Assembly (NCBI GenBank): GCA_046563655.1
Contig: CM102290.1
Coordinates: forward strand, 13,330,001-13,394,000
Length of the DNA stretch: 64,000 nucleotides
Direction: 5' to 3'
Source: Yuukianura sp. NJ FZ-2021
Lineage: Eukaryota
The notes below the pieces were generated by a model that saw nothing but the letters and a program-made list of their open reading frames with translations, searched no databases and had not been told where the DNA came from. Shown here piece after piece: positions 49-62,640 of the stretch (the first letter of the stretch is position 1; every line of letters starts with the position of its first letter). The translations under genes were made by a program, and so were the position numbers.

Positions 49-1286
49 TTAACCTGTTTTGCAATAGTCAAATACGTCCTTGAACTCGTCACCAAGGCAA
101 TGAAATCCTTTCAGTTTCTGTTGATATTCCCCATCTAAGCAAATCCAATCCGACCTGGCATCGCAAACAAGTTGGTTGTCTTCATGATCTTCCTGTTCTC
201 GCCCAACCCGGACAGTAGACCGAGTCGAGTCCAGCAGAACTTTGAAAACGTTTTCTGGCAAGTAAGTCAAATTTCTGTTTCCCTCCAGATTGACCTCTGC
301 ATATGGACTGATCCCTTCAAAGCATCCAGGGGACAGCAACTCTGATGAAATTTGATTTGATGCCAAATTAAGTAATGTGAGAGTTGGCTGATAGGCAAAT
401 GGACTTAGCCCAATTTCCTTGACATCCGTGGAATCAAATTCAATCGTCTCCAGATATCGCAGACCTTTGAATGCATTATCCACAATTGTGGAAATTCCAT
501 GTGAAAAAAATGACAGATATTTCAAATTTGTAAAACTTCTGATGAAGGGATAAACATTGTTGGATCGACCATGTTGAATAACGATAGTCGTTGTGTACTG
601 GTGTGTGCTTGGAAATGCATCACTATTGATACTGAGGTGTTGAGTACTGCTGAGAATGAACTGAATTGTTCCAAATTTGAGTCCAGTCATCACATTTGCT
701 GGAATTGTGACTTCGTAGGCGGAGGGGCTGGAGCTTATCGTTAATTCCTCAAATATTGGGTTTGTTCCTGAAGCTTCAGATATTTGATCAAACATTTTCT
801 TGTAGTCCGTCCCTGTGGAAACTGTGCAATTGACAGTTCGCTCAAACTCGGCATTCTGTTCGCATATGCACTCCACCGGAAACGATTCTGAAGGAGGACA
901 TTCTCCACCCAAGGTTTCTATAGCAACAAAATAGCATTAAGAGGTTAAGCAATAAGTCCCGCTTTCAGAAAATCTCTCCCCAAACTTTTTTTTCACCCAA
1001 GTTTCACCCAGACTTGTTTTGTGCAAAAATGTAAATGTTTGCACCAAACTTAACGTTCAAAATGAATGAAAAAAATTCGGTTTCCAAAAATCGCCCAGGA
1101 AACTAGACTTGCCGTGATTGTCTTTTCATTTTTGCAATTTTGGGGGAATAAAAAATAAAAAGCGACTTATTGCCTAACTTGTTAAAGAAAAAACTATTTT
1201 CTCGTTAACGAACCTTGTTGTCCACCAGCTGAAACTTTTAGCACAGGAGCCAATAATACCAATAGGAACAATTGTAGCCGTTGCAT
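49..1286 (-). CDS. Secreted leucine-rich repeat protein (~313 aa), 2 exons (1286-1214, 917-49)
   Basis: Exon 1 encodes a signal peptide (MQRLQLFLLVLLAPVLKVSA). It joins in frame to ORF 49..912, which has LRR motifs (LKYLSF, LTLLNLASNQI, VNLEGNRNL) and Cys-rich caps. The only intron is a TIR element. Confidence 0.85.
910..1217 (-). mobile_element. CAAGG-TIR element forming intron 918-1213 of the LRR gene
   Basis: Termini caaggttt...gaaccttg; 9-bp TSD ttctccacc (901-909) / ttgtccacc (1218-1226); on the minus strand CAAG|GTTCGT ... GCTATAG|AAACCTTG. The interior aligns with copies at 6076 and 7134. Confidence 0.92.
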
Positions 1287-2458
1287 AATTGACTTCTCAA
1301 ATTTATATTTTGCACTTGAAATTCTGATTTAAATTTAAATTTCGTTTTGCCTCACGATTTTAGCAGCTTACTTTTCTGAACCTTACTCCAAATAAAACCA
1401 GCAAACTAATCATGCACTTTTAAAGGTTACTTTTGGATCCGTATTACATCAGCAAATATAAATAATCACATCATACACGTTTTCTATCTAAAACTAATCT
1501 TGATCACTACTTGAATTGGAGTAAGTGTATTGTTTTTAACAAAACAAGGAACAATGGTTTTCAAATTTTTGAGTGATTTCTGGCTTTTTACTGATGTCAC
1601 CTGTTATGCAATCTGGGTTCGAAGTCGGTAACTTACGTCATGTAGTCATGTTGTAACTTACCGTCATACATTACGTAACTTTCAAAAGGGTTTTGTAAGT
1701 TACTAGTTTTATCATACGTACTTATGTTAGTTACGTAACTTATGTATTTTTGGTGAAAAATACCGTAAACTTCGAACACCCTGTTTGAAATACAAATTTA
1801 GACACATATGAAAACATTCAGTTTTTCAAAATCATTTTTTCCATGTTCTACTAAAACTTTTTGGCAACTTCTTCCATTAGGTTATTAGACAACATTTAAA
1901 AAAAAACTGTTAACTTCAAGAAACATGTCAACGGTCTAAGGCGACTGGAATTTTTTTTTACAAATTTGAAAAGTGTCTTTTCAAAATAGGCAAATTATAA
2001 CTGATCTTCTGTTTTAAACAGTGACAATGCAGTGTAAAACTCAACAAAAGATCGGGATTCACCGTAAATTGGTTAGCAGAAACAGAACTGGATCCACCCC
2101 TAAATTAAGTGCATGGTTCTTGCATGACGAAAGGATGACCACCGTAATTGTTCAAATTAAACGCGTGGGTGAAAGCAAATCACGTCATTCGGCTCTCAAG
2201 CGGAGAAAAGGACTGTTTGATGTTCCAAAATGACAATTCCACCCTCTTCAAAATCCCGTTCTTAACTTTTCAGTCTTTTTAAGACTGAAGTCTTTTTAAT
2301 TTTGTTTTGAAAAATGTGACAAATTTTATACATGTTGAATTCATCTCCTCCCTCCTTGGATTCAGCTTCAATTAGGAAACTAGAAATACAGTAACTTACA
2401 CTGTAGTTCAGAGCTCAATATTGTAGTGGTGTTTAGTTGGACAAATTCTGAACGAACC

Positions 2459-2716
2459 CAAGGTTTGTTGACTTTGAATTTCTTTAACAGGTTGAGTAAT
2501 ACCTCATGTTTTTTCAATTTTGCACAAAAACAGTGTCATTCATTTCATGGTATCGTAGTCATAACAAAAAACAGCTGAATTTTCTAGATTTTACTACAAA
2601 TTTTTGGCAATTTTTGTTTGGATTGGAACCAAAATTGGTACCATTTTTTTTTGTCAACAAGGAAGGTAGTACTCAACCTGTTAAAGAATATTCATTTTCG
2701 TTGTCAAGGAACCTTG
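2459..2716 (+). mobile_element. CAAGG-TIR element, non-coding copy
   Basis: caaggtttgttgac...gttgtcaaggaaccttg, subterminal ttaacaggtt/aacctgttaa; degenerate 9-bp TSD gaacgaacc/gaacatacc. Confidence 0.8.
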
Positions 2717-5082
2717 GAACATACCCAAATTACGTCATCTCAATTCTAAAATATTTTGACAAAATGAACTAAAACGTTTTTAGCAACATTGTTGCTATAT
2801 TTAAGATTAGAGGTATGTATATCATATGCATGTGCTAACTATGCCACAAAGGTAATGTATTGGCTTAGGTAGAAATTGACAAATTGAAAAGCAAAGAGCC
2901 CCAAAACATAGATTCCATAGTGAGAAATTTACGCTACATACAGAATCAATGTAAAATTAGAAGTCAGAAGGGAAAGAAGCGAGGGACCGGAACCAAAAGT
3001 TCCAATGAAAGCATCGCTTCCTCAACATCTTTTATTCTTCATGTCCAATCTGCATCAGACAGGCTTTCATTTCACTTCTACATAAATTCCCACGGACACT
3101 TCAAAACGCTTTCCCAAATACCGAAATTAGTAATTGTTTTCGTACTGTTCCACAATCAATCTTGAAGATTGATTTTGAAGTGCTAGTTGTTCCAAACCGC
3201 ACTAAACTTTTTTCTGTGTATTCAATTGACATTGTACTATTGTCAAAAATTGCCGCAGTATTTCATTTGTCAACGGAATTTACAAAGAACGACCTAAAAA
3301 TCTTAGAGGCCAATCGAATTGCGAAGTTGTTTTTACGTTTCTACGAAAAGAAGTTGCATTTTTTCAGGTTTCTTACGCTTCCCAGTTGCATTTCTTGGTC
3401 GAGAAGAAACACAGTGTCAGTTTCTGCGTTGATTTCGAATACTAAATCATTCTCCTTATATTTATTGATGTTTACTAGAATCACTCAAAAATATTTGTAG
3501 TAAGCAACGCTTCTGCGTCGATTTTATCATCAGAAGGTGAGCAATTTAATTCCATTTGTAATAGAACACGAGTTTGTAAATAATTGTTTTCATATTTAAC
3601 AAATTGTGGTAGAAAAAAATACACACAAAATCTAAAAATTTTTTTTGTACTCAAAAGCATTAGTAATACATGTGATACATGTATACTACATGTCTAATAC
3701 ACGTGAAAAATTTCTTTTCAAATTCAAGCTGTGCGCTTCCGCTACTTGCTTATGCTCGGTTTGTATCCGATTAATTTTTGTAACACTCAACTGCACACTT
3801 CTTTAAAGTCATTTGTCGTCATTATAGTATTTAATAATACGATCCATTGAACAATAAGGCGTACATCGCAGGTTAGCTATTGTTTTTGCTCTACCGTGTC
3901 TAATAGATACTAAAAATTTATGTACAAAAGTACATGGAATTAAACTTGTTAAATGGCCATGGGCAAAGGAAACGGACGGGAAGTTTCTACAAGTGGAATT
4001 TTAACATTTCTCATTCTCATTAACATTTCAAAAATAGAAGGGGGCACTCTTCCCATAAAAAAATTTTTTTTTCATTTTTTGTCCCAAATCGATTAAAAAG
4101 TGTTTCTCACATTATAAAACATGAAATGAACAAAAAAAAAAAACTTTTTGTGAAAATTTCAAAATGGACTCAGAATTCTTCGTATCCGAAAAATAAACGT
4201 TTTTTTTTTCTTCCTTTTCAAATTTTTTGACGTTTCAAGCTTATTTCCAACCACTTACAAAAAAAAAATTTTTTTTATTGGCAGGGTCCCCTTTTGGCAT
4301 TTTTGAATCAAAAAAAATTTTTTTTTTCACTTTTTGTTCCAAACCGATTTAAAAGTGATTCTCACACTATAAAACCTGAAATGATTCTTCTATGGAAATT
4401 GGAACGCGTCGGTAATGGAGCATTTAGTGTACACTAACTTTTCAGGAATATTTAGAGGCTGGGGTTTGAATTGTTATTTGCACGCTTTTCACTTTGAAAT
4501 TAAAAAAAGCAATGCTACTGAACTTTATTGACTCGATTTCTGATGGTTTTCTTTTTAATTGTATCAGCAATAGCTGTGTCACGATCAAACCGAAAGAATA
4601 AACCATTTCATGAGCATCTCACCACAAAGCTTTTCCTTTTCTTTTACGGAATACAAAGCAAACCGTACGATCAAGTGAACTTCAATGAAAAATTGGTTCT
4701 CCATTTGCGTTTTTGTCGTAACGCAGTTTCAGAAAGTTTTAAGGATTCTACCAAGCAGTTTCAAATGCTGTCTTAAAAAAGGATAATAAAATTGGAAGCG
4801 CTTTTTTGTTGCCATTACTCGGCGCCTCAACATGGATGAATTAAGAACTTTGAAATAGGAAAAGTTAAATGTAATGGAAGTTAGTAATTCTTTGTTCTGT
4901 TTTGGACGCTCCGAAATTTACCATGCATAGCGTAGCGTAACCAACCTCAACATATGTCAATACATTCTGTACGGTTTTGAATGTTCCACCATTTTGGTTT
5001 TGGTGTTCAGAAAGAATGAGAAGAATCAATTTGTCATCACATGTTACCGTAGATTTCCAACTAGTAACCCAGGGGTGTACTA

Positions 5083-5540
5083 CAGTAGAGACTCTCAAAT
5101 TGTAACTCCCTTTTTACTTTTATGGCGGAACACCGCAAAACTGAAGTACTAAACTTGAAGCCAGTCAACTGCTGACACTTTGGGTTGTCCCAAGGTTCGT
5201 AGAAAAACAAAACTTTCTTTCTACACCAGGTTGTCCAATAACTCCATGTTTTGAGAATTGTTAAAAAATTCGCAAAATATTTCCCCCGTTACTTGTCTAT
5301 GGTAATTATTTATATGTTGTGTAGTGTTGTGTAGTGTCCTAATGGAAATTACAGGGAAAAAATTATTTTTGCAAGATTTTTCAAAATCCCGAGTAATTGG
5401 GCAACCTGTTGTAGGAATACATTTGGGTTCTTAAGGAACCTTGGGTTGTCCTATACGATAGCTGGGATGTAATCCGTTTGCGGTAAATGTTAATCAAAAC
5501 AAACCAATCACAATGAGTTGCAATTCGAGTGGATCTACTG
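5083..5540. mobile_element. CAGTA-type MITE (Tc1/mariner/pogo-like, TA TSD) interrupted by a CAAGG element
   Basis: ta-cagtagagactctcaaattgtaactc...gagttgcaattcgagtggatctactg-ta; ~197 bp after removing the insert, similar in size to the copies at 28363, 30129 and 32947. Confidence 0.8.
5191..5443 (+). mobile_element. CAAGG-TIR element, 8-bp TSD subfamily
   Basis: caaggttcgt...ttaaggaaccttg; TSD ggttgtcc (5183-5190 / 5444-5451); subterminal ctacaccaggttgtccaataactc shared with the copy at 59869. Confidence 0.85.
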
Positions 5541-5619: not shown

Positions 5620-8600
5620 ATGGTGGTGATTCTACAACAAACAACAACGGATAACGGAAAACGATTTGTGTCAACACTCGTCGAGGACCAACAAGGCACA
5701 GTAACGACGAGTCGATTGGCGGGAAATTTCAACAGCACTTTGACTAATTCAGTGTCCGAGCAGAGCGCAATTTACAAACAAAGAATTGACAGTTTATTTG
5801 GATGCCCAAAGGGTCCACCTCCAACTACAATCGTCACCACAGCAACTCCATTCAGAAAAACGTTTAATCTGCCCAAATTTCTGCCGTTAACGAGCATGTC
5901 AAGCATTAAGGCCGACATTGTTACCTCAGAAGACGAAGGTTATCAACGAATTGACGAAGATGAAGTTAATTCATCTCTGCTTCCGGATTCTCTGAACTTT
6001 GACACCGGGGTATCCAGAACTAACTTTCCAGATTCTAGTCCTTGGAGGAACAGAACTTACTGTAACATGACCAGCCAAGGTTCGTAAACAAGAAAATAGT
6101 CTTTTGCTTTAACTGGTTAGGCGATAAGTCGCTTTTTTATTTTTTCATCCCAAAATGTCAATAATAAAAAGACAATCACGGCTAGTCTCATTCCCTGGAC
6201 AATTTTTGTAAATCAAATTTTTTTCATTCATTTTGAACGTTCAGTTTAGTACAAACGTTTACATTTTTGCACAAAAAGGGTGATAAACCACTCTGTGTGA
6301 AGAAAAAGTTTGGGAGAGATTTTCAGAAAGCGGGAGTTATTGCCTAACCTGTTAAAGAAATTATATTTTGTTGCTATAGGAACCTTGATGACCAGCAGCC
6401 ATTTTGCGACTGATATTCGGCGACAACTGGACGATGAAGTGAAACTTCCAATTTCATCTAACGGAATTCTTCAGTTTCCAGCACAATACTTGGGGTCCGT
6501 TGGATTGCAAGGGGCGACCGCCACTTTGCAGGATCTGCAAAGTCCCCTGCGATCTTTGTACTTAAACTTTTTAAAAAACAGGAACATTTCCTCCGGTCAA
6601 CTGTCTATAGCTTCAGAGGGACTTCAGTTTGACTGTAAAACTCTACGCCTAATCAGTCCGTTTTCGACAATTTCTGTTTGGGCGGCTATTAAATTTGTTG
6701 TCCGCGGTGATCCGCCTATGGAATGTGCCTTTATGCCACTCATTTCCGATCCGGAAGGACAAGACAAGCGAAGACTTTTTGGAAAAATGGATTCTGACCT
6801 TGGACATGCCTATTTGACTTCCTTGAGAAGTGCGAACCTAACGGGATTCCGAAATCCGCCGATCTTTGCCTGTGTGACACGACAAGGAGTGCCTCAACGG
6901 TCCGAATGTGTTGGATTTACATGCAAGTCGGCTGAAGATGCTATCGTTATCGCTGCAAATTTGTATCAACATCTATTAGTCAATGAACTGAAGACACACA
7001 AGGAAGGAGAAAGTGGCTACGGCAGTTTGACCAACACTTCTCCGATGACAACCAATCAAAATTCTCCAAACAGCAGCAGTCGAGAAGAAGTCAACCGTCC
7101 ATTTTCTTCAGCATCTTCTCTATTGACTCCAACCAAGGTTCGTAAACAAGAAAATAGTTTTTTCCTTAACAGGTTAGGCAACAATTCCCGTTTTCTATTT
7201 TTTTCCTCCAAAATTTCAAATACAAAAAGACAATCACGACAAGTCTCGTTTCCTGGGCAATTTTTGTAAATCGAATTTTTTCCATTCCACTCATTTTGAA
7301 CGTTCAGTTTGGTACAAACGTTTACATTTTTGTACAAAAAACAGCGATAAACAACACTGGGTGAAACTTGGGTAAAAAAAAAGTTTGGGGAGAGATTTTC
7401 TGAAAGTGGGACTTATTGCCTAACCTGTTAAAGAAAAATATTTCGTTGCTATAGGAACCTTGGACTCCAACTAATGCTTCCGGAAGCACATCTTTTGAGT
7501 CTCGGAAGCCAGACAAGATTAAAGACGCAGCACCTCCTTTGCGACCTCCGCGTCGTCATAGAAACGACGCAGCATCGAGCCGAGGATGTTCGAAGGAATA
7601 CAATTCTGACGACTCTTGTTCCGTTGTTCTCAAGGTGCCAATCCAGAGAAGAAAGTCGTTCAAAACTTACAGTCATCGCTACCAGCGTTCGAATCCCGCC
7701 AAGCTCAAAAAACGTGTCAAAATTTCAACGCCACCAGACCATGGACCTTCTACTGACACAATTGAACGAATCTTGGACAAGCTGGTACATCCAAGAAGCA
7801 GGTCACTCAATGACCTCAAACCTTCTTATAAAAAGTTAATTTTAAAGTTAGCTTTGATTTTAACCCACGATCATCGGTCTAAAAACAAAGAAAGTCCACG
7901 GAAACGACACGGTCGGAATACAAACAAACCGGCAGTGTCCAAGTTACGCAACCAAAGAGAAGCAGAACAAGTTGGAAATCTAGGTAAACCATTGGGCAAA
8001 ATGGCGCTAGGAAAAGGCGGAGCTTCACCATTGCGGACTAATCCGGGGACAGTATCTGCTAATCCTATGGTCAAAGGAGAAATAGCAGGTCAGAGTTCAA
8101 GGTCAACCAAAAGTCGGCATGATTTGTCAATTTGCAGTGGATGTGTCTGTAACAATTGCTCAGACAAATGCTACTGTTCTTTACCGACGAATACTTGCAA
8201 GTCTGCGGGTTCGTCATCTGCGAGCCAAGGTTTGTAAAACAAGAAGATAATTTTTTTTCTTCAACAGGTTAGGCAGTAACTCGAACTTTTTAAATTTTGT
8301 TAAAAAATAAGCATAACTTAGTGCATCGTGCCTTCCAATATCTATAATCATTGCCATATGGCAATGATTTATAAGAAATCAACTGGGATTGGAGGAAAGT
8401 TGGAGGAAAAAATTGTTTGAATTCGAGATTTTTCGAAAACAAGACTTGTTGCTTAACCTGTTAAACAATGACTATTTCGTTGCTGTAGGAACCTTGTCTG
8501 CGAGCAGTACTCCATGTCGACGGGATGGTGGCAGTATCCAGTCAAGCAAGAAATTAGGACTGTTGAAGCCAAGGGACACTGGTTGTGGTTACATGTGTTA

Positions 8601-11098
8601 CGAAACGGAGAGTTGCGCAGAGAGTGAGAAATGTTACTGTTCTCTCCAAGGTGTCAAATCCAATGGTCTCAAAGTGTACAACATCAATTTGGACACAGAG
8701 ACTTCCGATACAGACACAAACTCATATGACCTACAGTCATTCAATCACAGTTCAACAATTCCCAACATTCATTGTAATGACATTGCGGGTCAGCGGGGTC
8801 AAGGGTCAACCCCCATTAAAATCCTGGCGTACAATCCAGGAAGACGACATTCCAGTGACTCTCAAGTGTCAAGGGAGATGAGTGGACTTGTACATAGACA
8901 AAATTCAAATGGAAATGGACCGCCGTCTTCCAAAACGAAAAATGAAACTACTCTGGTAAAGTCAACTTTGAATTTCAGTTTCATTTCGAAATTTTAATAA
9001 TTATGCAGTCCAAAAATTTCAAGATTTTCAAAAACTAAAAATGTTGGGGAAGAACTAGGTTAATACACGACAAATCAGAACGGTTCTGCATCAATTCAAC
9101 TTGAGAGCCACACGTTTTCCCAACTGCAGCCTTGAAATACATTTTGTGAAATGATTTACTTTCAGTTTTGCTTTCGTTTTTTGAAGTACCGTAAAACTTC
9201 TAATAATCGTCGGGTCTCTATGATACTCCGCGGGGTTCAACTCAGACTTAGAATTGAACGAGGGGATAAATGTTGAGAGTTTGAATAAACGGCCGGACGT
9301 TTATTAGGAGTTTTACGGTACAAAACATAGCCATAGGTTGCTATAGAACTCATTATTTATAATAATGCGCTAACAGGTTATGCCATAACTCCATTTAAAA
9401 AAAAACACGAAAAAAACAACAACTTTTGTACCAATTTTGTTGATTTTCACAATAATCTTTTGAATTTTTTTAATTTTCATCTTAGTGAGTCATAGTGTTT
9501 CTACAGAAGGACTTTTGGAAAAAGTAAGGATTAGGCTAACAAATTCACTACAGTGCATTTTCCTTTTTTATGGAAATTTAAAAAATTCCAGAATATTGAT
9601 TTTTAAAAACAGCATCACACCTTCTAACTTTCTACAGAAGGACTTTTGGAAAAAGTCAGGATTAGGCTAACAAATTCACTACAGTGCATTTTCCTTTTTT
9701 ATGGAAATTTAAAAAATTCCAGAATATTGATTTTTAAAAACAGCATCACACCTTCTAACTTTCTACAGAAGGACTTTTGGAAAAAGTCAGGATTAGGCTA
9801 ACAAATTCACTACAGTGCATTTTCCTTTTTTATGGAAATTTAAAAAATTCCAGAATATTGATTTTTAAAAACAGCATCACACCTTCTAACTTTCTACAGA
9901 AGGACTTTTGGAAAAAGTCAGGATTAGGCTAACAAATTCACTACAGTGCATTTTCCTTTTTTATGGAAATTTAAAAAATTCCAGAATATTGATTTTTAAA
10001 AACAGCATCACACCTTCTAACTTTCTACAGAAGGACTTTTGGAAAAAGTCAGGATTAGGCTAACAAATTCACTACAGTGCATTTTCCTTTTTTATGGAAA
10101 TTTAAAAAATTCCAGAATATTGATTTTTAAAAACAGCATCACACCTTCTAACTTTCTACAGAAGGACTTTTGGAAAAAGTCAGGATTAGGCTAACAAATT
10201 CACTACAGTGCATTTTCCTTTTTTATGGAAATTTAAAAAATTCCAGAATATTGATTTTTAAAAACAGCATCACACCTTCTAACTTTCTACAGAAGAACTT
10301 TTGAAAAAAGTCAGGATTAGGCTAACAAATTCACTACAGTGCATTTTCCTTTTTTATGGAAATTTAAAAAATTCCAGAATATTGATTTATAAAAACAGCA
10401 TCACACCTTCTAACTTTCTACAGAAGGACTTTTGGAAAAAGTCAGGATTAGGCTAACAAATTCACTACAGTGCATTTTCCTTTTTTTATGGAAATATTAA
10501 ACGTTTGAAACGGACAGACCGACAGTACTTTTTACAAATTAGCACCTTCAATTCTAATCAACAACTCGAAGTTATTTTCTTGGCAACGGCATAGGCCCTT
10601 CTTCGTCTAAACCCCATAATTATAGGTTTGTAAATTCCTTTCATCGTTAAATTCCAGGAAGATGAAATGCATCCTAAAGGTCGAAGTTCACCAAGCCGGC
10701 GGCAGCGTAAGAAAGTTCTTTTGCTGAGTGATTGCTCAACGTCGTCCAGAGAAGACTTGTTGATGGGCCATGACGATTGTTCAGCACAACGTCAGTATAA
10801 CAGACCCAGCAGAGTCCTTGGTCACATTCCAGAGGATGACGATTGTAGCCTTACTTTCCCAACGGACAATTCCATCCACTCAGTTCAAGTGCTGGACATG
10901 AAGAAAACGGCAGAAATTGAAGCAATGTTTACAACTCTCAACATTGGGCAAAACCGTACCGTAGTCGATGGAAATCCAAGAATTGGGAGAGATCAGGAGG
11001 TTGTTCCTATACGCAGAAAATCATGCGCTGCACTCAAAACTGTTCGCTACTCTTCAGTTACAAGTGACTTTCAAACGTCTTTAGGTTATCTTCCATGA
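5620..11098 (+). CDS. PTB/PID-domain protein (~966 aa); exons 5620-6079, 6380-7137, 7455-8229, 8489-8955, 10658-11098
   Basis: Exons join in frame (2901 nt). PTB-like core FPAQYLGSV...WAAIKFV...ECVGFTCKSAEDAIVIAANLYQ, Cys motifs (SDKCYCS, SEKCYCS), C-terminus SLGYLP. Confidence 0.8.
6076..6387 (+). mobile_element. CAAGG-TIR element forming intron 6080-6379
   Basis: Perfect 9-bp TSD atgaccagc (6067-6075 / 6388-6396); CAAG|GTTCGT donor; CTAAC at 6344-6348; GCTATAG|GAACCTTG acceptor; spliced product MTS-QGTL-MTS. Confidence 0.95.
7134..7462 (+). mobile_element. CAAGG-TIR element forming intron 7138-7454
   Basis: Perfect 9-bp TSD gactccaac (7125-7133 / 7463-7471); same splice signals as the 6076 copy; spliced product LTPT-KEPW-TPT continues into the RPPRRHRN frame. 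Confidence 0.95.
8226..8496 (+). mobile_element. CAAGG-TIR element (divergent interior) forming intron 8230-8488
   Basis: Perfect 9-bp TSD tctgcgagc (8217-8225 / 8497-8505); CAAG|GTTTGT ... GCTGTAG|GAACCTTG; spliced product SAS-QGTL-SAS. Confidence 0.93.
9189..9318. mobile_element. TA-flanked MITE (CCGTAAAACT...AGTTTTACGG)
   Basis: Terminal inverted repeat ccgtaaaacttctaataa / ttattaggagttttacgg with TA on both sides, in an intron. Confidence 0.75.
9332..9475 (+). mobile_element. Left-end fragment of a CAAGG/CATAGG element
   Basis: Starts cataggtt; ataatgcgctaacaggttatgccataactcca...caattttgttgattttcacaataa aligns with the copy at 31974; no right TIR found. Confidence 0.6.
9498..10494. repeat. 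131-bp tandem repeat, ~7.6 near-identical copies, intronic
   Basis: ctacagaagg/ctacagaaga recurs at 9501, 9632, 9763, 9894, 10025, 10156, 10287 and 10418. Confidence 0.97.
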
Positions 11099-31973: not shown

Positions 31974-32253
31974 CAAGGTTTATAGGTTTATAGCGCCCAT
32001 TTATAATGCACTAACAGGTTATACCATAACTCCAATTTTCTTTTACAAATACGAAGAAAAACAACTTTTGCATCAATTTTGTTGATTTTCACAATAAATC
32101 TTTTGAATTTTTACGTTGCTGAGTATACTTTTGATTTTGAATTGCCAACACAATGGAACCGTGTGAGATGTGCGGTTCAAAAAAATTGGAAAAAGGAGTT
32201 ATGGTATAACCTGTTAAGAAAAAACAAACACAATTTGAATTGAAACAACCTCG
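31974..32253. mobile_element. CAAGG-TIR element, non-coding copy lacking an acceptor AG
   Basis: caaggttt...aacctcg; subterminal taacaggttataccataactcc / ggagttatggtataacctgtta; 9-bp TSD ccactgaac/ccaccgaac. Confidence 0.8.
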
Positions 32254-33241: not shown

Positions 33242-36200
33242 CTAATCCAGGATGACAATCTCGTCACAGAACATGGATTCTGGAGAGGTGGGGGTAGTGT
33301 CTGGAAGTGGTGAGAAGATGATCTCGTCATCATCAGGTGCCAGTGGATCCTTCAAGCACAATAACATCCACGCCTCCACCTTTGACAAAAAATCCCCAAA
33401 TATTAGCTCAACAGTTTCCAGTATTCCAGTTTTTGTTCTACATTGTACTTATACATACCTTTCGGTCCATCGTAGCGTTCTTTGGCTCAGCTTGTACAAA
33501 CTTCTCAGGAACAAAAAGCTCACCATGATCTACTTCAACATGAAGCTTGAAAGAATTCATTGTCCAGGAACGATTCCCACAAACTTTGCAGGTATATCTG
33601 TAACAGAAATGCAAGTACTAAAATGAAAAGACAAAGTTAGTAACAAAAGTAAATAAATCAAATACCGATGGTAGTTGAGATGTTGACGCAAATGGGTCCT
33701 CATATTTTCCGCAGATTTGGTTCTGTACGTGCCACACTGACAACAGGCATACAGAGACGGTATTTTTGGCAAAGACGTAGACGGCAAAGTTTGTTTTCGC
33801 CTGTTGGCTGGTGATGGTTTTAACTTTGTAGGTGTTTTGGGATTCGGTTGAATTGATTTCACTGGTGATGATGCTTTGGTCACTACAGTCTCAGGAACCA
33901 CATTGACTTCGTTCTCATGCAAGTAGTATATTCCACGAAGATGATCGCGTGAATTCACTCGTCGCCAGATCGGTAGTCGAAAGTTTTCGTCTCCCAGCTC
34001 AGTCCTGGATATTCACAATTCAGAATTGAAATAACAAGAAAAAATTTCATTTTTTTAACAAATTCTGTTTACCGAGAGAAGAAAACCAAGAAACGACCTC
34101 CTTCGCCTTCAGGCTTCCAGCACTTTTTTGACGTCACATGCTTCCCTAGTTGAAAGATGCTGTCCGAATGAAATGTGCAAGAGTCACACATGAATTGGGA
34201 CTTGACTTTGTGAATTGAACGAGCATGGTCCTTCGCCACCGTCCAGTTTGACAAGTTCAACTTGCACGTTAGGCATCTCCACTGCCCTGAACCTTTTGTA
34301 CCCTCATCAGTCCCAGTACCGCTGTAAATATCCAGAATCATAAGGTTCTAGTTAAGTTAAGTCCAAAAATTAAGAAAGCGAAAAGCGAACACTAAACTAA
34401 AAATACATACCGTTTACTAGCACCAGCTTCGTCTTCAGTGCCGCGAATTACAAAGTGATAAGGTCGCAGGCCTGGATGCTTGTCGACCAAATGCTTGTCC
34501 ATGAAATTGGTACGAATAGTGATGAAATCACAGTGTGGACATTTGAGTAACTTTGCTCCATGCAATTTGAGATGAGTGCCTAATTTATCCACGGGGACTG
34601 TGTAGAGAGGGTTTGATCCTACAAAAAAAAAACACAAATTATTACGTAACAATTTGCAACATTTTAAATGAATGTAAAAATGCGTCTTCTTACGTGTACC
34701 ATCCAACAATTGACAATGAGGGCACATGTATGTGTCGTATTCAGAATGAAGGGCTTTCATATGTGCTCTGAGCATCGAATCGTCCACTGTGATTTGAGCA
34801 CAACTTGGTACGCTACACACGTATCTGAACTGAGCTTCAACAAACTGCGGCAGTGTTTCTTTGGCTGTCGCAGAAACAACTCTGAAAGTAAAAACAACAG
34901 TAAACACCTTAAATTTCGTGACCTAAGGAACACAATCACGCAAGTCAGTATTTAAACTTACGCCTTAGCATTATGTGTACTCCCAGCCCAGTTCGTCATT
35001 TTGTCAAACATCATCTCTTTCCTTTCCAACCAAGGAACTGAATTGACCGTAGCTTGAGCAGGTACAAGTGTAGTTGAACCTTCTTCCTCAGCCCATTTGT
35101 GGAGATTCAAATGCCGTGTCATGTTAGTTCGTACTTTGGTGGAGTAGGAGCAAAGAGCACAGTGTACTTCTGACCTGTGTGTCCAAACAGATAGAATTAC
35201 ATTGTTAAACTCTGTTAAAGATACTGCTTAAGTTATGAATTAGCATTTGACTAAACTTACAACAACGTGCTGGAAGGCGGAATGTCATCGATTTCATTAG
35301 GATGAAACTGTATGCGTGGAACATAAACCAATGGATTCTTCTGAATAAGGTTGAAATCAACTGGATTTGACAGTATGTCTTTCGGGTACCAAAGCCCATC
35401 ACACGATTTCGGTAAGTTGCAGTGAGTACTTTTGAAAATCATTGTGACGGCACTGTACTTGTGATAAGACTGTAAAGCAGAATAAGTTAGGATTAGAAAA
35501 TTCAAACTGTTCGTCACATTCACAATATTACTGAAGTACAATTTTACCTTCAAATGTTTTTTCATCTCAGTAGCATTACGGCCTTTGTATGAACAAAGAG
35601 CACACCAATTGTTGGCTTTCCCATGAAGATTGATGTGTTCAAAGAACGAGGCTGGAGTTAGGTAACGCCTTCCACAGTGTGGACAAACATGACCAATCTC
35701 TGGGTTGAAGAATTTGCATGACATGTGATGATGCACTTTCAGCAATTGCAAAGTGAGGCTAGAAAATTCACAACCTATATTTGCGCACCGGTACAAATCC
35801 GTCCCTGAAGAAAAAAAAACAAATAAATAAAGTTAGTACTGTCTTTAGTATTGATTTTTTTAAATACTAGAATTAAATACTAGAATACAAAAAAAATTAG
35901 ATATTGAGAAATTAGACAACCTTTTTAAGAAATATAATTCGGTTGTCAAGGAACCTTGCTTACCTTCGAGATCAACCATCAAGCCAATGTCAGAATGTGG
36001 ACTTGCTGGACAGCTATGACTAGTAGATGGCGGATTACTAACAGGAGTTTGGCTGTGAACCGAAGCACTAGGTGTTAGGACCGTGGATGAAATGGAACGT
36101 GGACTGGCCAACGGCGTTTGAGGAGAACGTGTGCTTCCAGCAGCAGCAACGCTATTTGAAACCGACTGCACAACTTCTTCTGTAATTTCATATTTCTGTG

Positions 36201-41861: not shown

Positions 41862-42805
41862 TCTGATTACGATGTCATTAGATGTTCAGCAGAATCATTC
41901 GAAATTGGTGATCTTATGGCAAATCAATCAGAAAATCTGTAAAATAATCATCCAGTCATAAGAATTAAAAGCAATCCAAACTTGTCATGCAGTGAGGACA
42001 TGTACTACGTACAGTCTATGAATAAAACGAATCTCCAAAATCGACTATTTGTCGTTTCAGTATTGCACCTATAAGGCGTGAGATGGATTCCAAACGTAAT
42101 TAATGATCATTTAACCAGTTGACAGGATTGAAACGTGGTCATTTACGTTAACGGGTATCCTAAGTTCGTTATCCGGACTGCTACGAATTAAAGGCCTGGC
42201 GTACCGTATACCGTTCGTTTCCAGACACCTACGAAAGTGAACGTTGAGAGAAAGTACTGGCGAGTGATGACTTGGAGATTTTGCGAGTTAATTGATGAAT
42301 ACTGTTTATATTCAATATGGAATTGGTAATTTCTTAACTGGGATTCGGTGAATTATAAGACGAAGTAGAGCCATTCCCTTGTTCTCTTTCTCCTTACAAT
42401 TAAAAGGGAAAGATGGGTTACATAGAAAGAGAGAGTATAATCTAAATATTTCCAATAAAAGTGCTCTCTTCTCTCAGGCCCACTTTAGACACTAAAGTGG
42501 GGCAATTCGAAACTTATTTCAAAAAACAAAGGATGGTTTCGGATAAGCGTTGCCAAACCGGCCCAGCGCCATTTGTTTGTTTGTATATTCTCCGGCCCAC
42601 TTAATAACGATATAAAACGTTTTAAATTCGTTGTTTTTTATCACAAATGTGCAACTTGTGTGAAAATGTACAAATGGTTTGTATGCGCTGCACAAATTCC
42701 TTTCGGAATTGTGCATTGTATACAAACCGTGTGGGCGACGTCGAAACTGAAAGAAAACATTAAAATGGAGAATTTTTGATAATAAAATTACCGTTAACCT
42801 CGACC

Positions 42806-59254: not shown

Positions 59255-59868
59255 CTGCAAATACCAAACAAAACTCAGTTAATCTCAGTTTGTCTTTTGA
59301 TAAAGGCGTAGTTATGGTCTTAACCACTAAATCCGGTCAAGGGTCAAGTGAGTGAGGTCAGGATTTGTAACTCGGCCTTAATCAATTTAGCTTAACTCAA
59401 GCTAACCCTTAGGGTGTGCCAACTTAACGAGGGCAGGGCGTGACTTTTATTTTTTTTATAGTTGCATTTAAGTTCAAACCAGCATTCTAAAATTAGTTCA
59501 ACTTGCGTCAATCAAGTTCTTCCAGAACAGAACCAGAACATCTCCGTTACGCAACTACTTAACCATTGCGAAATTTTTACCAAACACATTGCAATGTACA
59601 AACAGTCTGTGAAATCTGCAACCCACAAACTAACCTTCACTTCGTCCACACCCACCCACACTTTATACTTGATAGGCCACTGAACTTTAGCTCTTCCCCA
59701 ACCTAATCCCTCCTTGAAAAAACAGAACTTTGGTAAACTAAAAGCACAATCAACAAACAGCACTGCATCGCCACAATTCCATATGTTTGATTTAACTTTT
59801 AGTTTCAGTTCTTTTTATTCGTTAAAGTTTCATTTTTCATAGAAAATTAAATCATACCCTATTCAATT

Positions 59869-60089
59869 CAAGGCTCCTCGACAACCGAATTGTATTTCCT
59901 ACAACCGGTTGTCCAATAACTCAGGATTTGCAAAAATTTTGCTTGAAACAATTTTCTTCCCCCAATTCAAATTGCTGTACATAAAAAAAATTACCATAGG
60001 AAAAAAGATTTTCAAATTTTTTTAAAGTGAAAGGCATCGAGTTATTGGACAACCTGGTGTAGAACAAAATTTTCTGTTTACGAACCTTG
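59869..60089 (-). mobile_element. CAAGG-TIR element, 8-bp TSD subfamily, in the putative Mnt intron
   Basis: Minus strand caaggttcgtaaacagaaaattttgttctacaccaggttgtccaataactc...gtcgaggagccttg; TSD attcaatt/atccaatt. Confidence 0.85.
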
Positions 60090-62640
60090 ATCCAATTGCA
60101 AAATCAAATGCATATATAGTAAATAAACGACTAAAACCCGAATTTGCCTGCAAATATGCGATTAGAATGATCTCAAATATGAACATCAAGGCGTTTCAAC
60201 ATTGAGGCCTATTTGCCATGCACAAAAGTTGTCGAAACAGGGTTTGGGCGACCACCATTGTAGTGGTGCACCACCGCCACGCTCATGGCTTCCACGTGGA
60301 ACTCTGTTAGCATTGTGTGAAACCCTAGGCGGAAATGACTGATACATTTTTGCAACTTGCTCAGGAACGGCAGGTATGCTTTATAACTCTAGCGAATAAT
60401 AGTAGTACAAGCACGTGTAATGTGCAAAAAAAAGTAGAGTAAATGGTCTTTGAGCTTGAAATAGGCTAAAGAAAAACGCCGGGTTTTTCTCTCATTCAAC
60501 CCGTCTGTCTACTAAACGAGTCAATCAGTTCCGTAAACGTCATCACAACATACGAAACTAATTGTTAAGTTCACATTTTAAGTAATATCAACCAGCTATT
60601 CCTGGGTAAAGCATTTAAAACAATTTTTTAAACAAATTTTAGAAACAAGAATGTTTCACATACTTGCTGGGGCTCCGCCCAACACCAATTCAATCGGCCT
60701 AATCAAAGTTATATCGTTTTTTCCCCAAAACTAACAGATTATTATTATTATTTGCATTTTTTTAAACAACATTAGTCGTCTGGATCTAACAAGTTAGTGC
60801 ACTCAAATTTTCCATTAGTTCAATGCTACACCAATATGAAAAGCTGACGAATATGATGATGACATTTTCAAAACTAAACTGAAACTGGGTCGAACTCGAA
60901 ACACAAAACATTTAATATGAATCATTGCGAGGTTGAAGACCCATGAGGTCTCACTGTTAATCTTCTTTTTAACCTACATTAACTAGTATGACAATGACAT
61001 ACAGCAGAAACACAAACTCAAATTATAAATTCCCATTTCCCAATCATGTTTAGATTCACGAACCGGCTAAGGTGGCTGGCAACTTCTCAAAATAACAATT
61101 TAAGCCAACAGCAGTTTTTACAGGAGCAGCTAAAAACGCCAATTGAAATACCGATATCCATTGCCAAAAGGCGCATGATGATGAACGACACTTGAAAAAT
61201 TCCTTAAGGCGAACCATTTCAAATCAAGAGACACAAACTTCTCATCTCGGCTTTAGCCAACGTTCTTCCCGTTAAGTTACTTTGAACCCAGTATGATTCA
61301 AATTGCAGCAGTTTCCAAAGACTTGTGATTTTGCCAAAAAACATTCATTCTTAATTCCATTCCGCCTAAAACGTGTCATTACAACTAATTAGTAATTGAG
61401 AACCATAAGCCATGCGAAGTACTGGCAGCACATTTCATGTGAGGCGCTAGAAGCCATCTTTTAATGCCAGAAAATTTGGCTCCTAAATCATTCCATCGAC
61501 GTCAAAGTGAGCAAAACAACAGAAATGCTGCTGCTGCAACGGTACTAAAACTTTTGTCAACATTCGCACGTCGTCCCTGTCAAGTGTCAACTGCAAACTC
61601 CTGTTGCTAGAACTCAAAAACAACTTATTTTTGCGCAATGCCATGTGCCAAATAGCCTGGATCACCTCCAATGGCAGACTTTTAAGCGAATTAAAAGAAG
61701 CATGTGGTTTACTTTCAGCTTTGAGTGAAACTAAAATGTCAGTTCCATGAATAAGATCAAAGTCTTTCAACAAATCCTACACGAAACTTCGCTTTCAAAA
61801 AATAAAATTAATTCTAATCTAATAATATCGTCCATGTTTATAAAACTTCCGGTGGACAGGGTATAAAACAGGGTATTAAATTCAACAAATCCGAAAATTT
61901 CGGATTCGGATTTAATTTTGCCCGAAATTAGATTTGCACACTCCCGAGTCCCGAATGTTCTTCCAGTGACAGTGACTGAGATTTAGTCGAATTAAATTAA
62001 AAACGAATATTTCGAGCTCCATATAAAATAAACTAAGGAATCAACGTACGACGTGTTGAAATCCCGTGGCCAATTGCGTAGTATTGGCTGGGACACGGAA
62101 AACAACAAAGTTATAAACAGGCTTGTCAAAAATATTTATCAAAAATATCACAATATTGTTGTAAAAAAAAACTTGTTAAATCGAAAAAAGCAATAAACAA
62201 AATTTGACCAAAACTCGGAAAATATTATTTAATAACATTACACAGCCTTAAAAACTAAATATTTTTGATAAGCCTAACAAAAAAAAAACAGACGGGAACT
62301 ACTATTGCTCGAGTATAGCTCTAACTCCAAGCAAAAAAAAATATTTAGATTGGAAAACAGCGATTCTGCACGACCAAAATATTTCGGCTCATGATTAATA
62401 AAGTAAAAACCGTCATCAGCAGTTTCCTGCAGACAGAAATTCCGAAACGTAGGGGAAAAGCTAGCCAAGAAAACAGTAGAGGTCATCCAAAAAATGGGAG
62501 AAAAGAAAATCCATACATCCGGTTCTCATAATCAATCTGTCCAACTTCCTCTACACATGCTTTCCAAAATTTCTAAAAACCTACGCTTCAAAATAATCCC
62601 CTCCAAAAATAAAAAAAAATCTAAAATCACCCAATTTACG

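Follow-up and report, generated by a model that had tools for sequence, protein, structure and literature searches.

P-superfamily MITEs with 8- and 9-bp TSDs in Yuukianura sp. and the association of the 9-bp class with coding exons

The stretch of Yuukianura sp. NJ FZ-2021 DNA analysed here (64 kb of contig CM102290.1, positions 13,330,001 to 13,394,000; hereafter the window) raises the question of why related short elements should carry a TSD of 8 bp where they lie outside genes and of 9 bp where they lie within exons. A first, sequence-only reading answered this with a split in the family, such that a non-coding 8-bp subfamily stands beside 9-bp subfamilies that may have become exon-tolerant through a one-base change in cut stagger. 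In the present study, the elements of the window were compared with their relatives across the genome, with the autonomous element that shares their ends, and with the host genes that they interrupt.

The window holds seven complete MITEs of 221–329 bp with imperfect TIRs of about 55 bp. The 253-bp copy at 5191..5443 (plus strand; imperfect TIRs of about 55 bp) is non-coding, ends 177 bp upstream of the start of a predicted PID-domain gene, and is flanked by mutually identical 8-bp TSD copies (left, 5183..5190; right, 5444..5451). Another non-coding copy, of 221 bp, occupies 59869-60089 on the minus strand (59861..60097 with its 8-bp TSD, which has one mismatch). Open codons on the two sides number 14 and 13 for the 5191 copy and 6 and 35 for the 59869 copy, neither lying within a long open frame. 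As first described, the two have in common a 24-nt subterminal motif and have GT and AG at equal offsets (in splice orientation, the GT lies at +5 and the AG ten bases short of the end). Of 116 non-exonic 8-bp copies in the genome-wide sample, 101 retain both dinucleotides, which have probably been kept as part of the terminal repeat, with no need of a special origin; belonging to that repeat, they are by themselves no sign of splicing. The TSD at 5183-5190 is identical to eight bases of the element's own subterminal motif, for which about one chance case is expected per 150 copies on a rough estimate. The reservation that it abuts a run of G was fair: taken alone, it could be a 9-bp TSD from which a single G has been lost, but in its cluster the commonest length is 8 bp (12 of 15 called copies). 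A 258-bp copy at 2459-2716 (2450..2725 with its TSD, plus strand), the seventh in the window and absent from the sequence-only reading, is non-coding and has a TSD that is best fitted as 9 bp, with two mismatches.

The other four copies lie within two host genes and, as claimed, have 9-bp TSDs (with 1, 0, 0 and 0 mismatches for 910, 6076, 7134 and 8226, respectively). The first, of 308 bp (910-1217; 901..1226 with its TSD, minus strand), interrupts a gene for an LRR protein with a hydrophobic N-terminus (49..1286, minus strand; LRR_5 and LRR_8 matches). The remaining three, which are 76–83% identical to one another, interrupt a PID/PTB-domain gene (5620..8997, plus strand) whose best homologues are from springtails; they measure 312 bp (6076-6387; 6067..6396), 329 bp (7134-7462; 7125..7471) and 271 bp (8226-8496; 8217..8505), all on the plus strand. 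If each element is cut after its base 4 and before its last 8 bases, giving predicted introns at 1213-918, 6080-6379, 7138-7454 and 8230-8488, the open frame is restored in both host genes with a scar of seven added residues per insertion, and in the PID-domain gene an 833-codon frame persists through all three insertions. Over residues 1-786, the 833-residue protein predicted from this gene can be aligned with its best springtail homologue (38%), and all three insertion sites fall within the aligned part. These sites lie in indel-rich linkers, where the homologues are heavily gapped, so the alignments cannot resolve the 7-residue scars; and since further in-frame donor/acceptor pairs are present at several sites, the exact junction is a prediction.

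The genome (98.7 Mb, 22 contigs) was searched for relatives, using four of the window's copies together with three patterns of the termini, and ends were paired with a TIR profile, giving 201 distinct paired copies, a sample biased to intact ends and to relatives of the window copies; 70 further listed matches of one terminal pattern lie outside it. Two rows were excluded, L182 (a tandem copy having its TSD in common with L184) and L044_1414 (a nested duplicate), the latter still being within the counts based on 202 elements. The TSD was 8 bp long in 109 copies, 9 bp in 36 and 7 bp in three, and 53 had none at one mismatch or fewer. Shuffled flanks gave chance matches at rates of 0.08% (8 bp) and 0.025% (9 bp), so the calls far exceed chance. 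When two mismatches were allowed, provided that the other register had at least four, the totals became 115 eight-bp and 44 nine-bp copies. Assignment to a window copy required at least 100 bits and was achieved for 168 of the 201 copies, and subfamily structure was judged by clustering and nearest-neighbour tests, without a tree. Twenty unbiased 10-kb stretches contained three paired elements, from which about a thousand copies may be expected in the genome; a number this small does not amount to a census, and the stretches served as background for the exon test. Exons were defined by open-frame length and not by annotation, because coding scores based on codons and Markov models discriminated weakly (66% true positives for 2% false positives), and this definition misses short exons, such as that of window copy 910, which fails the 90-codon test.

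Termini of the CANRG type combined with TSDs of 7–8 bp are typical of the P superfamily; the first five bases of these elements presumably also fit a hAT terminus. The autonomous element was sought, and its transposase proved to be of the THAP/P type. When the genome was searched for the GTP-binding domain of P transposases, four matches were obtained. Two of them, at L067:3035-6430 and L068:3593-7201, represent one element of 3.4–3.6 kb in two copies that are 99.4% identical. Its termini correspond to those of copy 910, and its TSD is perfect in both cases, being 8 bp long around one copy and 9 bp long around the other. Their transposase has Pfam matches to PF05485, PF12017, PF21787, PF21788 and PF12596 (THAP, P-element HTH, RNase H, GTP-binding and C-terminal domains), its best match is the Drosophila P transposase 6P5A (E 5e-26 and 4e-8), and the catalytic residues D230, D303 and E531 align to D, D and E (manual count on the 6P5A alignments; numbering from PMC7776569). 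The difference in length between the two copies, both apparently recent, is a tandem array of units of about 54 bp within the transposase gene. Fourteen distinct insertions have both exact 18-nt ends of this element, and their TSDs are all perfect, 12 of 8 bp and two of 9 bp. Young derivatives are 93–100% identical to the autonomous ends, and the ends of window copies 910, 6076, 7134 and 8226 are 71–83% identical to the autonomous element. A second P element (L066:2891-6487) has an 8-bp TSD, and the ends of the 5191 and 59869 copies are closer to this one (77–88% over 24–86 nt), by matches so short that the P assignment of these two is weaker. Judged by their ends and by the coding sequence of the partner, the MITEs are non-autonomous members of the P superfamily, with the autonomous element in hand. 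A third THAP/P-type transposase gene (L065; G000 C9, near 580,000) had no matching TIR within 10 kb, and may belong to another family or be a domesticated gene.

Tabulated genome-wide, TSD length did not track subfamily, an outcome that the sequence-only reading had itself named as incompatible with its proposal. All four groups were mixed and dominated by 8 bp, with 8:9 counts of 23:5 for relatives of 5191/59869, 22:11 for those of 910/6076/7134, 34:5 for those of 8226 and 14:7 for those of 2459; the 8226 group, supposedly a 9-bp subfamily, is thus mostly of 8 bp. The nearest sampled relative of the 59869 copy (L025, 84.6%) has a TSD of 9 bp. Three 228-bp copies that are 100% identical have TSDs of 8 bp (L184 and L244) and 9 bp (L192), and the members of another pair, 99.2% identical, have 9 and 8 bp. 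Among non-exonic copies, nearest neighbours were both of the 9-bp class in nine cases against 8.8 expected (p=0.50, n=153); when exonic copies were included, the figures were 20 and 12.6 (p=0.06, n=165). The ends of the second P element, being nearer to 5191 and 59869, indicate that real subfamilies exist, yet both lineages give mixed lengths.

A milder proposal can be entertained tentatively, namely that every subfamily makes both lengths, with a 9-bp rate that varies by transposase lineage or epoch, so that some subfamilies would yield more exon-tolerant insertions. The 9-bp share of non-exonic copies ranged from 10% to 37% between clusters (4/42 in the 8226 cluster, 11/30 in the 2459 cluster), and the 13:4 ratio in favour of 9 bp reported for BuT5 in D. 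mojavensis (PMC3698922) suggests that such ratios can vary among P families. Permutation tests of the cluster rates at three cut heights gave p=0.077, 0.12 and 0.053, none of them below 0.05, the nearest-neighbour test was null, and the 2459 cluster, the richest in 9 bp, is without any copy that passes the exon test at 60 codons. Such variation is compatible with the explanation that we prefer, and both can hold.

That explanation, which we consider highly probable, is that these are P MITEs inserted with a flexible 8/9-bp stagger, and that 9-bp insertions in sense orientation within exons are tolerated by way of predicted in-frame splicing, so that selection acts on each insertion and exon residence is not a subfamily trait. 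THAP-domain P transposases whose genes lie at other places in the genome move the MITEs, as the shared ends and the internal-deletion derivatives show. From the TSD lengths, cuts would be staggered by 8 bp in about three quarters of insertions and by 9 bp in about one quarter, in every subfamily, and one transposase would make both staggers. Base 4 of the terminal repeat is followed by a putative donor, and in most older copies one end also has a putative acceptor before the last 8 bases, so that a sense insertion in an exon could be spliced to leave 12 nt of the element plus the TSD. The frame arithmetic first put forward is sound: together with the 12 nt, a 9-bp TSD makes 21 nt (seven residues) and an 8-bp TSD makes 20 nt. 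The 21-nt scar would be tolerated in flexible linkers, the 20-nt scar would be a frameshift, purged unless the host supplied another splice site, and selection would in this way remove 8-bp and antisense insertions from exons.

The proposed link between a 9-bp TSD and exon residence was borne out in the larger sample. At least 90 open codons were found on both sides of the empty site in 7/44 9-bp copies versus 2/115 8-bp copies (p=0.002), a 9-bp rate that may be inflated, as the sample favours intact ends, which exon residence would preserve. Outside the window, the counts were 4/38 and 2/113 at the same threshold (p=0.035), and 4/38 and 3/113 at 60 codons, the latter not significant (p=0.067). 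The seven 9-bp exon cases are all in sense orientation. The exon test was passed by 7.0% of 3280 unbiased background positions, and the 8-bp copies fell below this level (p=0.011); by another count, exon-resident copies made up 15 of the 202 sampled, compared with 11% of background positions at the same threshold, a comparison of open frames that leaves introns and UTRs aside. In a test that is independent of TSD length, 11 of the 202 elements had frames of 90 codons or longer on both sides that the canonical sense splice would join, and five shifted or antisense controls gave 1, 1, 0, 2 and 1. Seven of these 11 had been called as 9 bp, L165 and L227 fit 9 bp only with three mismatches, L212 has lost its acceptor, and L007 has an 8-bp TSD. 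Copy L100, in sense orientation with a 9-bp TSD, keeps the frame across 35 and 69 codons. The reverse strand has an AG at the corresponding offset in 22 of 187 non-exonic copies; the acceptor of the older copies is thus one-sided, which explains the sense bias, and the youngest derivatives have an acceptor at both ends.

Could the exonic copies instead be unspliced, lying in dead or dispensable genes with a frame that fits by chance? Splicing is predicted from frame alone, GT and AG are kept in most non-exonic copies as well, and a young 8-bp copy (L239) interrupts a reverse-transcriptase frame from which no splice would remove it in frame. This alternative is nevertheless improbable, given 11 frame joins where the controls gave 0–2, and an 833-codon frame that has survived three insertions 76–83% identical to one another.

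The description of the 8-bp class as non-coding holds in that such copies are rare in exons (2/115), but they are not absent from them, the two cases being L239 and L027. The former is consistent with a dead insertion. The latter (L027:1482-1724; G000 C1, near 1,195,940) lies in a folate-synthesis gene of the FOL1-like type, within its FolB domain, and the gene's tandem paralogue (L259) is uninterrupted at this site. Two in-frame routes of removal are available, one joining the element's donor to an acceptor of the host, 4 nt beyond the TSD, with a change of one residue, and the other using an upstream acceptor inside the element; this copy could be removed in frame by such predicted splicing, or this copy of the gene could be dead. 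L007:2412-2876 (minus strand) has a TSD of 8 bp with one mismatch. Here long frames on the two sides would be joined by the canonical splice, but they are out of register across the 8-bp empty site, which may reflect a compensating one-base change. L212:1501-1811, also flanked by long frames, has a mutated acceptor, and the left and right copies of its drifted TSD contain motifs resembling a donor and an acceptor, respectively. Pfam searches of the exon flanks named only three of the candidate host loci: the FOL1-like gene, a reverse transcriptase and Spondin.

The 9-bp copies had also been linked to Mutator-like elements, for which TSDs of this length are typical (PMC2774946), and three matches to the MULE domain do occur in the genome. 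It is very improbable, however, that a Mutator-like or hAT transposase recognising the same ends moved these copies: a complete P element, with a P-type transposase between its TIRs, itself has a perfect 9-bp TSD, two of the three MULE loci (7 kb each) were examined and contained no match to the TIR profile, and A at −3 and T at +3 are common to 8-bp sites (56% and 53%, n=70) and 9-bp sites (71% and 62%, n=21), as expected of one kind of enzyme. Very improbable, too, is the model of a non-coding 8-bp subfamily and exon-tolerant 9-bp subfamilies separated by a heritable one-base change in stagger, which can draw on the 8/9 pattern within the window, on two related P transposases (43–78% identical exon by exon), of which the second resembles 5191/59869 and the first 910/6076/7134, and on the 9-bp TSDs of 5/11 non-exonic copies in the tightest 6076-like cluster, but which is contradicted by the mixed and mostly 8-bp composition of every group, by the occurrence of both lengths on identical copies and on one autonomous element, and by the lack of a nearest-neighbour signal among non-exonic copies (p=0.50).

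Flexible stagger in P MITEs, and introners that carry both splice sites, are each already published. In Drosophila, the BuT5 MITE and a P element of the repleta group have 8- and 9-bp TSDs on highly similar copies, which the authors read as flexible stagger (PMC3698922). The present family is like BuT5 in being a P-superfamily MITE with an autonomous partner and with both TSD lengths on highly similar copies, and differs from it in its 8-bp majority, TIRs of about 55 bp, copies of 200–330 bp and splice-like sites in the termini; no mention of an intron role for BuT5 was found in the part of PMC3698922 consulted. With the P element of D. melanogaster (PMC7776569; PDB 6P5A) it has in common the THAP domain, an RNase H domain with equivalents of D230, D303 and E531, a GTP-binding insertion, TIRs and a mode of 8 bp, whereas 9 bp makes up about a quarter of called TSDs here and non-8-bp TSDs only about 2% in that species (as cited in PMC3698922).

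Introners of Aureococcus sp. bring the two splice sites with them and contribute codons (Gozashti et al. 2022, bioRxiv 10.1101/2022.06.06.494994, legend of Fig. 2F-G). There, as here, the element supplies donor and acceptor, and TSD and retained bases together make whole codons, 4+8=12 nt (four residues) in the Aureococcus family described and 12+9=21 nt (seven residues) in the present family. The two differ in that only the minority TSD class is in frame here, and so most copies are non-exonic; introners were enriched in genes in 161 of 175 genomes in the same preprint. In Polarella glacialis, introner-like classes 9, 12, 13 and 15 have one TSD length each and create introns in several frames (bioRxiv 10.1101/2020.10.14.339549). 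A family that forms introns in several ways by recruiting host splice sites recalls what is proposed for L027, but the flexibility lies in splice-site recruitment in Polarella and in TSD length here. According to a 2025 survey, most introners are non-autonomous, about 72% are unclassifiable, and Allacma fusca, Folsomia candida and Orchesella cincta have no introner families (PMC12130899). The terms 'P element' and 'P-element' were not found in the main text of that survey, the figure or supplements of which may class some introners as P, nor was 'P element' found in a 2024 review (PMC11282704). In a literature search that took in few subscription papers, no account was found in which intron formation depends on a minority class of TSD.

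Elements with TIRs and TSDs whose ends fall at or near predicted splice boundaries in coding exons, the pattern by which introners are recognised, were found here as in-frame joins in 11 of 202 elements, compared with 0–2 in controls, and in four copies of the window. In its 9-bp minority, the family thus appears to behave like a scar-leaving introner, with splicing predicted from frame. A bolder view, to which we give about even credence, is that a recently active hexapod P family is an introner solely through imprecision of its transposase, the roughly one in four insertions made with 9 bp being near-neutral in coding exons and each adding an intron and seven residues, with maybe tens to a few hundred introns added in all and with the youngest derivatives able to do so in either orientation. 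If this is true, intron gain would be gated by sloppiness in the cut site, and a single genome would suffice to measure this, the 8-bp copies being an internal control. Most introners being non-autonomous, it is of value that the autonomous partner is known here and is a P element, and the 8-bp majority is a built-in control by which it is directly testable how costly, in terms of selection, an insertion into an exon is and what part TSD length plays in the gain of introns. A caution also follows for annotation, in that neither superfamily nor subfamily should be assigned from the TSD length of a few copies.

The window is dense in these elements, with seven compared with the three paired elements across the twenty unbiased 10-kb stretches. 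P elements show local hopping (PMC7776569), and the four exonic copies within 8 kb may reflect this or a permissive region. Several partial or repeated forms were also seen. The region 9336-10583 opens with half an element, at 9336, and continues as a 131-bp tandem array whose units are nearly identical, a degenerate related element occupies 31974-32253 (9-bp fit with one mismatch), a solitary right end lies at 35905-35958, and an array of 15-bp units begins at 42781 and extends for more than 1 kb. Elsewhere in the genome (L182-L187; G000 C1, 4,803,116-4,807,836), several young MITE ends occur in tandem, flanked by the same 8-bp sequence, which suggests a tandem duplication of the element together with host DNA.
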